From contig JAYPVM010000004.1 in assembly GCA_038134595.1 (NCBI GenBank), positions 5,573 through 69,572 on the forward strand: a stretch of DNA of 64,000 nt, read 5' to 3'. Positions 3,229-47,509 of this stretch are shown in pieces. Every line of letters starts with the position of its first letter. The first letter of the stretch is position 1. Made by a program: the position numbers and the translations under genes. Source of the DNA: Pseudomonadota bacterium. Its GTDB lineage: Bacteria; Bdellovibrionota_C; UBA2361; OMII01. A model generated the notes under the pieces. It made no database searches, was not told the DNA's origin, and saw nothing but the letters and a program-made list of their open reading frames with translations.

Positions 3229-3735
3229 TTACACAGCGGGTGTTACATCAGCAGGTTCTTTTTGAGCGAAGAATATTAGCAAGAACACCCCGATGCATAT
3301 GGCGCTATCGGCGATATTAAATGCGGGCCAGTGGTATGATCCGAGATAAACGTCCAGAAAATCAACAACACTTCCAAATCGTAGCCTGTCGATGATATTT
3401 CCAATGGCACCCCCGAGGATGGCAGCAAGGGCCACTTGAGAGGTGATGTTTTGATAGTAGGACCGAGTAAGAAAGAAAGCGATAACGAGAAGGGCAAGAC
3501 AGATTGTGATGGCGAGGACTATCTCACGCCATACATTCGGAAGGTTAGACCACAAGCCAAAGGCTGCACCACGGTTGAAGGTCAGGGTGAGGTTAAACAG
3601 ACCCTCTACAACCGAGCGAACCTCTCCTTCATAGAAATGAGCACGCACCATTTCTTTGGATACCTGATCACTTGCGATGGTAAGAAGCGTGACAAAACTA
3701 ACCACTATGAAATTTCTTTTTGAAAACGTGAACAT
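3229..3735 (-). CDS. lspA: Lipoprotein signal peptidase II
   Basis: NRGAAFG, GAIGNIIDR, VVDFL, WPAFNIADSAI. Confidence 0.97.
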   Translation of the reverse strand: MFTFSKRNFIVVSFVTLLTIASDQVSKEMVRAHFYEGEVRSVVEGLFNLTLTFNRGAAFGLWSNLPNVWREIVLAITICLALLVIAFFLTRSYYQNITSQVALAAILGGAIGNIIDRLRFGSVVDFLDVYLGSYHWPAFNIADSAICIGVFLLIFFAQKEPADVTPAV

Positions 3736-44278: not shown

Positions 44279-44400
44279 GATAAGCCTGCGTTAGCGAGTT
44301 TATCTGGCTGACGAGGCATAAAGGAACATGATTACTCGTTTGTTATCTCCGTAATTACTGTGACCTTACTCATGGGAGTTCCTCTGAGGACTCTTTACTA

Positions 44401-44457
44401 TCGTTTTTGTGTTTCCTTGGGGATAAACCCTAAGGTCAGAGAAAAACGGAGGACACA
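44401..44457 (+). promoter_or_regulatory. Candidate RNA thermometer
   Basis: TCGTTTTT pairs AAAAACGG, overlapping SD GGAGG; inner CCTTGGGG/CCCTAAGG. Confidence 0.4.
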
Positions 44458-44991
44458 ATGTTTCGAAGTAATTATCCATTACGTAGTAGTCGTTTATTTG
44501 GAGAGGATTTGCCTGCTGCACCACGGTCGTTGCAGAAGGCAATTGATTCAGTTCTACAAGATATGTGGGAGCCCTATTTTACATCGAGTAAGTTTACTTT
44601 TACTCCGCAGATTGATGTCGAAGAGGATGAAAAGCAGGTTCGTATCGTAGCAGAACTTCCTGGGATGCAAGAGCAGGATATTGAGATTGTGTATGAGCCA
44701 GGCTCACTCGTCCTTCGAGGAGAAAAGAAAGAAGAGGAACATCTTGAATACCCGCGCGGTAGAGGTCGATACGATGAGCGCAGGTACGGTGCGTTTGAAC
44801 GTCGGATACCACTTCGTGCTGAGGTAGAAGAAGAAGAAATTCAAGCCAATTTTGACCGTGGAGTTCTGATTATTACATTACCAAAGACAGAGGAAGTACG
44901 AGCGCAGGCGAAAAAGATCCCTGTACAACTTGGGAAGTCACAGGGACAGATCGAATCGAGCCGCTCTCGACAATCGAGTGCAACGCACTAG
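44458..44991 (+). CDS. Hsp20/alpha-crystallin small heat-shock protein
   Basis: AELPGM, ERRYGAFERRI, ANFDRGVLIITLPK. Confidence 0.95.
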   Translation: MFRSNYPLRSSRLFGEDLPAAPRSLQKAIDSVLQDMWEPYFTSSKFTFTPQIDVEEDEKQVRIVAELPGMQEQDIEIVYEPGSLVLRGEKKEEEHLEYPRGRGRYDERRYGAFERRIPLRAEVEEEEIQANFDRGVLIITLPKTEEVRAQAKKIPVQLGKSQGQIESSRSRQSSATH

Positions 44992-45211: not shown

Positions 45212-46258
45212 CTAGGTTCGTTTCCGCCATATCCATAGTAAGCGCTCTGAAGTAGCTAGCACGATTGGCCCGAGGATTACTCCAGACGCACCTACAGTTA
45301 ACATGCCTCCAAAGAGAAAGAGGAAAAGTATCAGCGGATGATAGTGAATTTTTTTTCCGACTAGCCAAGGATAAATGATATTGTCAGAGAGTCCAATAAT
45401 GATACTGCCCCAACCGATTGCGAACACTCCGCGGATCCAACTTCCCTGAAGTAGAAGAAATATAGCCAGAGGAAGCCACACTATAAAGGTTCCCAGGTAG
45501 GGAACGAGAGCAAGAAGAGTCATAATGACCGTCCAGATAAGGATATTGTGAATCTCCAACCACCAGAGGAGTGCGGCACCTAAAGCCCCTTGTAGGAGAG
45601 CAATGGCAATTATACCAAAGATAACGCCATGTATAGTGTCAAGAATTCGTCGTAACACTGCGTCGGTTTCACGTGCAGAAAGGGGTATGAGAGACCGAAG
45701 CCCACGCAAGAAAGCAGAGCCGTCTCGAAGCGAAAAAAATACCACGGCTAAGGTAAGGAGTGTGTTGAAGATGCTTTTGATTGAGGAGCGGACGATATGT
45801 TGCGCCTGATTTTCCATAAAAAGAGAGATTTTCGTGAGGATAGCATCGAGAGGGAGGATGTGGAGCGCGCGCTCGGCGAAAGACGTTGTCTCCGGATGGT
45901 TCTTTAGAAAGTTGTTCCAAAGGGATTCAACTGACGCTGGACTCACTGAGCGCAATCCCTCTATTGCAGTTGATATAAGGAGATGAGTCGCCCATACAGT
46001 TGGAATGATAACGCCGATTCCCAATACAAACGTAAAGATCAGAGAGACAGTAGTTCGGTTGGGCGCACGTCGAAGAATCCGACGGTAGAGTGGTTGTATT
46101 GTTATGGCAAGGGCAATGCCCCATGTGATCGGAGCGATAAATTTGTAGAGAATGATAGCCGATCCTGTGAGTGTGCAGGTGGTAATCAATGCAAGAGCCC
46201 ATTGCCTAAACCACGTGAGGGGAAGGAGGTCATGTGAATTAGAGGAGTTTTTTGCCAT
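45212..46258 (-). CDS. AI-2E family transporter
   Basis: Multi-TM; LVPYLGTFIVWLP, SDNIIYP, GVILGP. Confidence 0.9.
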   Translation of the reverse strand: MAKNSSNSHDLLPLTWFRQWALALITTCTLTGSAIILYKFIAPITWGIALAITIQPLYRRILRRAPNRTTVSLIFTFVLGIGVIIPTVWATHLLISTAIEGLRSVSPASVESLWNNFLKNHPETTSFAERALHILPLDAILTKISLFMENQAQHIVRSSIKSIFNTLLTLAVVFFSLRDGSAFLRGLRSLIPLSARETDAVLRRILDTIHGVIFGIIAIALLQGALGAALLWWLEIHNILIWTVIMTLLALVPYLGTFIVWLPLAIFLLLQGSWIRGVFAIGWGSIIIGLSDNIIYPWLVGKKIHYHPLILFLFLFGGMLTVGASGVILGPIVLATSERLLWIWRKRT

Positions 46259-46273
46259 GACTAGTGTAGAAAC

Positions 46274-46308
46274 AAAAAAACCTGGATGCAGATTAACTGC
46301 ATCCAGGT
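46274..46308 (-). terminator. Intrinsic terminator
   Basis: CCTGGATGCAG-N5-CTGCATCCAGG followed by U7 on the - strand. Confidence 0.9.
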
Positions 46309-46495
46309 CCGCGACGTTGTTTATGCGACATGAGCGCCCAAATGCCTTAAAGACTCCTTTCGTGAGTTACCTTTAAGGGAGATGAGCACCAAGGGGTCTG
46401 AAAACTATTGCTCTCAGTCTTTGGTATGAGAGGGGTCTCCCCCACCATTTTTCACGTCTCCCGGTTCATCGCAAGCGCTTTGTGCTTGTGTATGC
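46274..46495 (-). ncRNA. Candidate structured RNA or attenuator leader
   Basis: Lies between a sigma54-like motif and a terminator; nested stems GUGCUCA/UGGGCGC, CCUUAAAG/CUUUAAGG, ACUC/GAGU; also CUCUCA/UGAGAG. Confidence 0.5.
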
Positions 46496-46505
46496 CGGTT
46501 ACATA

Positions 46506-46522
46506 AGCAACGTACAAACCAA
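46506..46522 (-). promoter_or_regulatory. Sigma54-like -24/-12 promoter
   Basis: TTGGTTTGTACGTTGCT, exact GG-N10-GC. Confidence 0.5.
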
Positions 46523-46618
46523 TAGTAGCAGTGCGTCTACGAAGGTGCGCTGACGGCGGACAGCCTATAAGAGGATCCTAAAAAGAACTGATGATGCCGA
46601 CCAGAGGGTCGAGACGGC

Positions 46619-47509
46619 TTACGACAATTTTCCTGCAGCCGCGTACACTCGCTCCGGAGGAGTTCGAAGGTTCCAAACCAATCCGAACCAAGAGAGAACA
46701 ACAAGAATGTAATGTGAAATATCTATCTCCCACCAGTAAAATCCCTGCCGCTCTGAGCCTGGATAGTAGTGGTGGTTGTTGTGCCATCCCTCACCTAAAG
46801 TGATCAACGCAAGAAACCAATGATTCTTACTGCAATCGGTGGATGGAAATCGACGCTTGCCGATAAGGTGGGTAAAAGAGTTAATACAAAACGTGCCGTG
46901 ATACAAAAGAACAGTGCTAATAAAAAATCCCCACGTGAGCATTTGCAAGCCATTTGTTTCCAAAGAGGGGTAAGCATACTCAAGCCATACACCGAGGAAA
47001 AAGCAAGCCGCCCCCAGTAAAATAGGAGGCACGACGTTGAATCGCTCCAGAAGTTTTAATTCAGGAAATTTCACTAGGTCTTTTACGAGCTCAAGACGGG
47101 GCTCAAGAAATTGAGAGCTAAGCACCCAGCCAACATGTGCAAAGTAAATTCCATGGACGATCGGAGAATGAATGTCTTCGGGAGTATCGGAGTGTCGATG
47201 GTGGTGCCGATGGTGAGACGCCCACCAGATGGGACCTTTTTGTGCCGCGGTGGTTCCGAGGAATGCCAATAGAAACTGAAAGACTCGACTTGTCTCATAC
47301 GAACGATGAGAAAAGTATCGGTGATAGACGCCGGTAATTGCAAACATGCGGATAACGTAAAGCGCAAGACATACCGCCACAGCGACCCAGCTAATCCCCA
47401 CCCAGAGAGCACTCAAGCATGCAAGGTGAACAGCCCAGAAAACACCTTGCTTAAAGATGTTCATGAATGAGAAATTTTCTTTCGAGGTGTCGACATCTGC
47501 GTGATACAT
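46619..47509 (-). CDS. Acyl-CoA (delta-9 type) desaturase
   Basis: His boxes HRYFSH, HRHHH, HNNHH. Confidence 0.95.
   Translation of the reverse strand: MYHADVDTSKENFSFMNIFKQGVFWAVHLACLSALWVGISWVAVAVCLALYVIRMFAITGVYHRYFSHRSYETSRVFQFLLAFLGTTAAQKGPIWWASHHRHHHRHSDTPEDIHSPIVHGIYFAHVGWVLSSQFLEPRLELVKDLVKFPELKLLERFNVVPPILLGAACFFLGVWLEYAYPSLETNGLQMLTWGFFISTVLLYHGTFCINSFTHLIGKRRFPSTDCSKNHWFLALITLGEGWHNNHHYYPGSERQGFYWWEIDISHYILVVLSWFGLVWNLRTPPERVYAAAGKLS

Follow-up and report, generated by a model that had tools for sequence, protein, structure and literature searches.

To our knowledge, only a few structured RNAs of bacteria exceed 200 nt and retain a complex fold as their sequence changes, and several RNAs of this sort have proved to act as ribozymes, to partner proteins, or to form large assemblies. 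The raiA motif RNA and OLE are orphan structured noncoding RNAs (ncRNAs) of bacteria that were found by comparative genomics, and 6S RNA is a rod with a central bubble. For the Bdellovibrionota, we know of very little RNA biology on record. In Bdellovibrio bacteriovorus, merRNA is described as an abundant ncRNA that contains a cyclic di-GMP (c-di-GMP) riboswitch, and the attack-phase promoters are described as FliA type, with the sequence TTAAG-N16-CCGATA (Karunker et al. 2013, PMC3627812). Here, we examined a stretch of 64,000 nt (hereafter, the window) from a bacterium deposited as Pseudomonadota and placed in the GTDB lineage Bdellovibrionota_C, UBA2361, OMII01 (assembly GCA_038134595.1, 2.6 Mb; contig JAYPVM010000004.1, positions 5,573 to 69,572), in which the 360-nt spacer between a fatty-acid desaturase gene and an AI-2E family transporter gene encodes a structured RNA on the − strand (46516–46274). 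We interpret this element, with a probability of roughly 0.65, as a stand-alone gene for a highly structured ncRNA of ~240 nt that belongs to a fast-evolving family of one genus, starts at about 46516–46514 from a conserved promoter, and acts in trans.

Comparison with described RNAs

Like the orphan ncRNAs raiA and OLE, the window RNA is a stand-alone, multi-branch RNA of more than 200 nt that shows covariation, has a promoter signal and a terminator of its own, and lies in a fixed neighborhood; unlike them, its family matches no Rfam model, has almost no invariant nucleotides, and was found in a single genus. The family is therefore new in the sense that it is absent from Rfam, although its general kind, the stand-alone structured ncRNA, is already known. 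No part of the window matched an Rfam 15 model at the gathering threshold, and when E-values up to 10 were admitted around the site, only chance matches to the terminator hairpin appeared (the best, MIR162_1, at 21.1 versus 75 bits). This agrees with the first-pass annotation of the window, which had been made from the letters alone and had recognized no known family. A titles-level search of the literature on structured ncRNAs of Bdellovibrionota, or on those linked to Hsp20, found nothing like the window RNA.

Several established RNAs were considered as identities and rejected. The signal recognition particle (SRP) RNA, RNase P RNA, and transfer-messenger RNA (tmRNA) are encoded elsewhere in the genome of the window. 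6S RNA is similar in that it is abundant and structured, measures ~200 nt, and pairs its 5′ end with its 3′ end, and its slot in this genome is open, as the Rfam model RF00013 found no match in the window, in the rest of its genome, or in any of the 91 genomes of the order. However, the window RNA forms two nested multi-branch junctions instead of a rod, and the RF00013 gap extends over the whole order, whereas the RNA is found only in the genus. As a separate observation, the RF00013 search of those 91 genomes implies that the order either lacks 6S RNA or has one that goes unrecognized. merRNA offers the precedent of a discrete, abundant ncRNA transcript in a member of the same phylum, but, as far as the cited report describes it, it differs from the window RNA, which has no riboswitch match and carries a different promoter signal.

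Fold of the window RNA

The sequence from 46517 to 46274 folded with an energy of −100.1 kcal/mol, compared with −65.2 ± 4.75 kcal/mol for 200 dinucleotide shuffles, none of which folded as well (z = −7.35). Because the + strand folds nearly as well (−94.6 kcal/mol, z = −6.51), energy barely separates the strands; the RNA is assigned to the − strand because of the U-tract, the side on which the conserved promoter lies, and the many conserved G-U pairs of the relatives, the last being the kind of evidence from which the strand had originally been argued.

The RNA, which is ~243 nt long if it starts at the conserved promoter (46516–46274; the 5′ end is predicted), folds as a closing stem P1, a hairpin H1, and a stem P2 that encloses three hairpins, followed by a strong intrinsic terminator. 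In P1, UGU-ACGUUG-C-UUAUGU (46516–46501) pairs with GCAUAA-A-CAACGU-C-GCG (46326–46310), which abuts the terminator directly. The energy of this duplex was −23.1 kcal/mol, compared with −9.9 ± 2.7 kcal/mol after shuffling, and none of 2,000 shuffles was as good. H1 (46498–46461) includes the pairing CAAGC/GCUUG (46488–46484 with 46476–46472); it is found in the minimum free energy (MFE) fold and aligns to H1 of the relatives. In P2, GACGUGA (46458–46452) pairs with UCAUGUC (46333–46327), and its 5′ strand is followed by an A-rich joiner, AAAAAUG. H2 (46447–46422) is given by the fold and by the model alignment to the relatives, and the fold further gives H3 (46417–46398; CUGAGAGC/GUUUUCAG, with three G-U pairs) and H4 (46389–46334), a three-tier stem composed of GUGCUCA, CCUUAAAG, ACUC...GAGU, CUUUAAGG, and UGGGCGC. 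The terminator (46309–46274) has a stem of 13–14 bp and a 5-nt loop; 14 pairs can be counted at 46310–46278, around a perfect core CCUGGAUGCAG/CUGCAUCCAGG, and U7 occupies 46280–46274. The ATG of the AI-2E gene, at 46258, follows the U-run by 15 nt.

The first-pass annotation had already picked out CAAGC/GCUUG, the three-tier stem, and the terminator with U7 ahead of the AI-2E ATG, and all three are part of the present fold. Two of its pairings are replaced. The strands of its CUCUCA/UGAGAG pairing fall into separate hairpins (46447–46422 and 46417–46398) in both the MFE fold and the model alignment, and its outer pairing, GACGU/ACGUC, gives way to GACGUGA/UCAUGUC of P2 together with a longer P1 that lies partly outside the coordinates of that annotation.

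Relatives at the same locus across the genus

A BLASTN search with the RNA-bearing stretch was run against 40 further genomes, 24 of them from the same genus, and matched none of them. Since the primary sequence has diverged too far for BLASTN, relatives were located by synteny, and an RNA with a common architecture was found at the locus in at least 30 of the 35 genomes of the genus. The order desaturase–RNA–AI-2E was seen in 19 genomes, and RNA–AI-2E, with the desaturase absent from the locus, in three; in five genomes, the RNA lies between the desaturase gene and a convergent hsp20 gene and AI-2E is absent, and in three the contig ends after desaturase and RNA. The spacers of the 19 syntenic genomes measured ~270–470 nt, apart from the two-copy spacer of L020, which measured 696 nt.

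P1, H1, and a P2 domain can be recognized in all 23 full-length members, with three inner hairpins in 21 of them and two in the remaining two (group C), and all 23 RNA loci end in a terminator that adjoins P1 and has a stem of ~12 bp and a run of 5–8 U. This architecture was derived by folding each sequence or each subgroup alignment. The mean column identity in an alignment of the members was 42%, and aligning the 23 cores together with MAFFT gave a result that was structurally unusable across subgroups. A short form of ~140 nt, in which P1 surrounds three hairpins, is found at L022, L013, and L021. At L020 (760–1460, genome G047), two complete RNA units stand in tandem between the desaturase and AI-2E genes, each with a TGA-N6-TCA/TACCTT signal and its own terminator. 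The promoter-like signal and terminator recurring in all relatives examined, the lack of an Rfam match, the covariation described below, and the RNA contigs confined to the unit support the claim of a self-contained unit for a structured RNA.

Beside the short form at L013 there is, upstream, a second and different small unit of ~130 nt with the same promoter layout (TGACCACGATCAT...TATCTT) and a strong terminator; the region upstream of the short form at L021 has a sequence and a terminator resembling those of this second unit. A scan of metagenomes with a 20-nt word of the RNA returned 13 loci, all of them chance matches of 20–23 nt.

The census bears on whether the RNA is a part of the desaturase messenger, that is, a structured 3′ untranslated region (UTR) or a product processed from it. 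The RNA does lie on the same strand directly downstream of the desaturase gene in 27 of the 30 genomes, and in the window the desaturase stop codon is followed by only a weak hairpin. However, a promoter-like signal stands between desaturase and RNA in every member, the desaturase is missing from the locus in three genomes that have the RNA, a terminator immediately follows the desaturase gene in L040, and the RNA contigs from this organism do not reach upstream of 46498. We consider this explanation very unlikely.

A second explanation takes the downstream neighbor as the target: the RNA would be a cis leader of the AI-2E gene, either a riboswitch or a protein-controlled attenuator, whose folded domain senses a signal and sets read-through at the terminator. 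This was one of two roles suggested originally. In 22 of the 30 genomes (three of them lacking the desaturase in the locus), the RNA is directly upstream of the AI-2E gene on the same strand, and in the window the ATG follows the U-run at a distance of only 15 nt, with no separate promoter evident. The window resembles terminating riboswitches and attenuators in that an intrinsic terminator closes a folded domain and a transporter gene begins shortly afterwards; unlike them, the family has no conserved sequence core or antiterminator, is kept where the transporter is missing, and includes a unit duplicated in tandem. In five of the 30 genomes that carry the RNA, the locus lacks an AI-2E gene, so that the homologues do not always precede AI-2E genes; a convergent hsp20 gene is found there instead. 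Between terminator and start codon there are anywhere from 15 to ~190 nt, and the duplication at L020 comprises the whole unit, with promoter and terminator. The sequence is also too variable within the genus for a ligand pocket, given that BLASTN finds no match and mean column identity is 42%, and no Rfam riboswitch model matches; nor did we find any work that pairs an AI-2E family transporter with a riboswitch. For 23 of 24 terminator hairpins, the energy lies between −17 and −25 kcal/mol, and a conserved antiterminator was not found among the evaluable members. In the window, the best alternative pairing of the 5′ arm of the terminator had an energy of −12.1 kcal/mol, which 94 of 300 shuffled arms equaled or bettered (−11.3 ± 2.1 kcal/mol), compared with −22.9 kcal/mol for the terminator hairpin itself, and only one of 23 evaluable members had an alternative pairing that beat all shuffles. 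Control of the transporter by such a leader is therefore improbable as the function of the family.

Shape is preserved while sequence changes

Base pairing was compared within subgroups of the members. In group A (seven sequences, plain MAFFT alignment), both sides had changed in 18 of 79 predicted pairs; 97.5% of the cells were paired, compared with 31–44% when the partners were slid by 1–3 columns, and none of 500 shuffles was as good, a count whose significance is overstated because the sequences are kin. In group B (six sequences), both sides had changed in 15 of 69 pairs, the structures within groups being predicted from the same alignments as were used for the pair counts. When groups D and E were combined with the window (seven sequences, in an alignment fitted to its own covariance model), both-side changes were seen in 51 of 71 pairs, and 88.7% of the cells were paired, versus 31–40% for slid partners. 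The changes extend over the fold: in the relatives, both sides had changed in 8 of 11 pairs of the helix homologous to P1, in 8 of 10 pairs of P2, and in 9 of 15 pairs of the helix homologous to H4. These results show that selection has preserved the shape of the RNA while its sequence changed, as far as can be read from aligned sequences.

Covariance models gave a second view of the same relationship. A model built from group D only (R1) recovered the window RNA at full length and helix for helix (23.4 bits, E-value of 2e-5 in 91 kb), and it recovered group E with E-values of 2e-9 to 7e-14. A model built from D, E, and the window (R2) recovered group B (E-values of 2.3e-5, 5.5e-4, and 9.2e-4), and found one copy per genome in 8 of the 35 genomes of the genus. 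Neither model reached group A (eight sequences) or the short form (L022), which are consequently tied to the family solely by locus, promoter signal, and architecture. Beyond the genus, R2 matched none of the 56 genomes that represent the rest of the order, including the one other genome of the same taxonomic family, a negative result that low sensitivity may explain. Within the reach of these searches, the RNA family appears to be confined to one genus of uncultured Bdellovibrionota, an extent that fast sequence drift makes hard to judge.

The pattern of substitution also bears on the 33-amino-acid (aa) open reading frame (ORF) that lies inside the RNA (46448–46347, − strand) and for which the RNA could conceivably serve as messenger. 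The ORF exists as first described, with a Shine-Dalgarno-like GGGAGA 7 nt upstream of its AUG, but it is not conserved in the relatives. It has no Pfam match; 12 of 24 relatives have no same-strand ATG ORF of at least 15 aa, and where one exists, neither its location nor its sequence agrees; in two members of group D (L004 and L027), UAG is the very next codon after the homologous AUG; and the substitutions follow compensatory base pairing. We judge the ORF not to be a gene, and a peptide as the purpose of this RNA is scarcely credible.

Conserved promoter-like signal and the 5′ end

Alignment of 25 upstream regions gave the consensus T(G/A)A-N6-TCA-N23-TAnnnT. In the left half of the repeat, T was present in 24 regions, G or A in all 25, and A in 21, and in the right half, T, C, and A were each present in 24. 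The T, A, and final T of the TAnnnT box were found in all 25 regions, and a G two bases upstream of it in 22, which gives the box the shape of an extended −10 element. Repeat and box are 23 nt apart in 24 regions and 22 nt apart in L022, and a conserved −35 element is absent. The corresponding elements in the window are TGT-CCGCCG-TCA (46562–46551, − strand), a slightly degenerate copy of the inverted repeat, and the extended −10-like box TGC-TACTAT (46530–46522, − strand).

P1 begins 8–12 nt past the box in the relatives and 6 nt past it in the window. If transcription starts ~7 nt past the box, the first paired base would be nearly +1 and the center of the dyad would lie near −41.5. Class II promoters activated by CRP/FNR/NtcA-type proteins have a site centered near −41.5 and a −10 box TAnnnT, with no −35 element. 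The RNA promoter resembles them in its TGA-N6-TCA dyad at a fixed 23 nt, its TA...T box, and the TG upstream of the box; it differs in that the motif is consistent only at the RNA and at hsp20, and that both start and regulator are putative. The genome encodes one protein of this CRP type (HTH_Crp_2).

The first-pass annotation had instead proposed a sigma54-type transcription unit. Sigma54 promoters have GG at −24 and GC at −12 (TGGCAC-N5-TTGCW), transcription starts ~12 nt past the GC, and an enhancer-binding protein with a site further upstream is required besides RpoN. The GG-N10-GC motif is indeed present on the − strand, within TGGTTTGTACGTTGCT (46521–46506; GG at 46520/46519, GC at 46508/46507), where it overlaps the 5′ strand of P1. 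Transcription from it would produce an RNA of ~220 nt that starts at 46496–46495 without the 5′ strand of P1, leaving its 3′ strand, CAUAAACAACGU, free. Like genuine sigma54 promoters, the motif has the exact GG-N10-GC spacing together with TGG and TTGCT, and rpoN is present in the genome (Sigma54_DBD, 218.8 bits). Unlike them, its −24 element reads TGGTTT rather than TGGCAC, and the motif occurs at a chance frequency, with six matches to TGG-N8-TTGCW in the window versus 5.0 ± 2.2 expected. The TGG-N8-TTGC core is present in one of the 23 members, the window itself, and in none of the 22 relatives, and bare GG-N10-GC is found in 11 of the 23 at differing places; the other, conserved upstream signal is present in 24–25 of 25 regions. 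Moreover, the motif lies inside P1, whose complementarity no shuffle equaled and whose counterpart covaries in the relatives.

Transcript evidence came from contigs of RNA libraries matching 46100–46900 (801 nt), found in three metatranscriptomes from three studies (46316–46496, 46299–46470, and 46336–46496); such contigs reveal neither strand, level, nor true ends. The first of them has two further unmatched letters, so that 46496 and 46498 are the points at which two of the RNA contigs, each from a different study, come to a stop. Both stops are 11–13 nt past the GC and have no loose end, while a DNA contig continues to 46553, which is a weak hint of a sigma54 start. However, the contigs also fall 25–62 nt short of the predicted 3′ end, a shortfall no smaller than the 20 nt at the 5′ end, and the third RNA contig stops at 46470. 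No RNA contig of this organism covered the flanking genes within 46100–46900, although the uncovered parts are no evidence of silence. Taken together, these data make a sigma54 start unlikely; the conserved promoter probably drives the RNA, and the remaining likelihood is left to processing or to two starts. Chance is the most likely origin of the GG-N10-GC, which would then be part of the transcript itself. A sigma54 motif that is plausible in a single sequence can thus fall inside the transcript once relatives are compared.

Shared promoter layout with hsp20 and proposed mode of action

A signal of the same architecture as the RNA promoter, TGA-CCTTAC-TCA-N23-TACTAT, was found by a regular expression search on the + strand (44361–44401) before the hsp20 gene (44458–44991, +), which is convergent to the AI-2E gene. 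Across the genus, T[GA]A-N6-TCA-N22-24-TAnnnT precedes hsp20 in 14 of 21 distinct loci, mostly 80–99 nt before the start codon, and three further hsp20 loci have a TGT left half. Across the genus (35 genomes), the strict pattern matched 23 times and the reversed-pattern control 3 times; in the 56 others, the counts were 26 and 12. Because hsp20 carries the same promoter layout, the RNA and hsp20 are probably co-regulated, and both the RNA and the small heat-shock protein would probably be under one dyad-binding regulator. A large regulon was considered and rejected, since the motif is not enriched in the genome and its instance before the ribosome hibernation factor (HPF) gene is not conserved. 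Motif instances in the genome of the window lie at G000:C3:105625-105665, C10:82733-82773, and C5:30459-30499, before the genes for this hibernation factor (S30AE), a CBS-domain protein, and a BON-domain protein.

In the sequence of events that we propose, a CRP/FNR-type dimer bound at T(G/A)A-N6-TCA, centered near −41.5, would switch the RNA on, by analogy with the class II layout. Transcription most likely starts at about 46516–46514 from the extended −10 box TGC-TACTAT; it ends at the intrinsic terminator, and the RNA folds into P1, H1, and P2 with its three hairpins. The RNA would then act in trans, with its shape as the active feature and a protein as the most plausible binding partner; such a partner is probable in view of how little unpaired sequence is conserved. 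Action by a conserved antisense seed or as a switch for AI-2E is unlikely. Pairing of the RNA with the translation start of hsp20 gave no signal (z of −1.1 to +0.9 in 16 genomes), and the antisense value obtained for the AI-2E start in the window is an artefact of terminator overlap.

A number of points weigh against the stand-alone, trans-acting interpretation. On the side of the family, the within-group structures come from the alignments on which the pairs were counted, the alignment of D, E, and the window from its own model, and the shuffle counts from sequences that are kin; R2 matches to group C were misaligned and overshot into the terminator, and group A and the short form lie beyond both models. 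On the side of the promoter, the window's own upstream site is degenerate (TGT, TCAG), the position of −41.5 depends on the assumed start, the upstream motif is unenriched genome-wide (10 observed versus 8–15 in shuffles), and before the HPF gene it lacks conservation, being present in 5 of 20 cases and there at other positions. For the 5′ end there is only a prediction, and the RNA contigs that stop at 46496 and 46498, for all that contigs leave strand, level, and true ends undisclosed, fit the sigma54 prediction, which would remove the 5′ strand of P1. Lastly, with a gap of only 15 nt, the AI-2E gene may depend on read-through or on a transcription start inside the terminator, and a cis role may exist in the window.

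A further reading is that the RNA represents a new class, conserved in shape and free in sequence, that is co-activated with Hsp20 by a dedicated regulator and serves these bacteria of a predatory lineage as a factor in stress or dormancy, for example, as a protein-binding scaffold or a decoy that works alongside the Hsp20 response. We regard this as speculative and rather unlikely; if it were true, the fold, with its two nested junctions and ~70 base pairs, would be without counterpart among the RNAs described so far. The narrow distribution of the family limits its present interest. It can now be searched for by covariance model, and the regulatory link to the hsp20 promoter is specific and testable.

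Neighboring genes

The desaturase gene upstream of the RNA (47509–46619, − strand; Pfam PF00487) shares 78–89% identity across the genus. The AI-2E family transporter gene downstream (46258–45212, − strand; Pfam PF01594, E-value of 5.5e-44) shares just 33–44% identity among genus members, compared with those values for the adjoining desaturase, and it is the gene missing from the locus in the five genomes that retain the RNA. Between the U-run and the AI-2E ATG (46273–46258), a Shine-Dalgarno sequence is not evident, and a TACACT hexamer lies 4 nt upstream of the ATG. As judged from these few bases, the transporter mRNA may be leaderless or produced by read-through. Elsewhere beside the locus, imperfect intergenic arrays of ACGTGC/CACGTT-type hexamers occur at L030 (~3440–3490), at L040 (~100–140 nt past the desaturase stop), and at L013.

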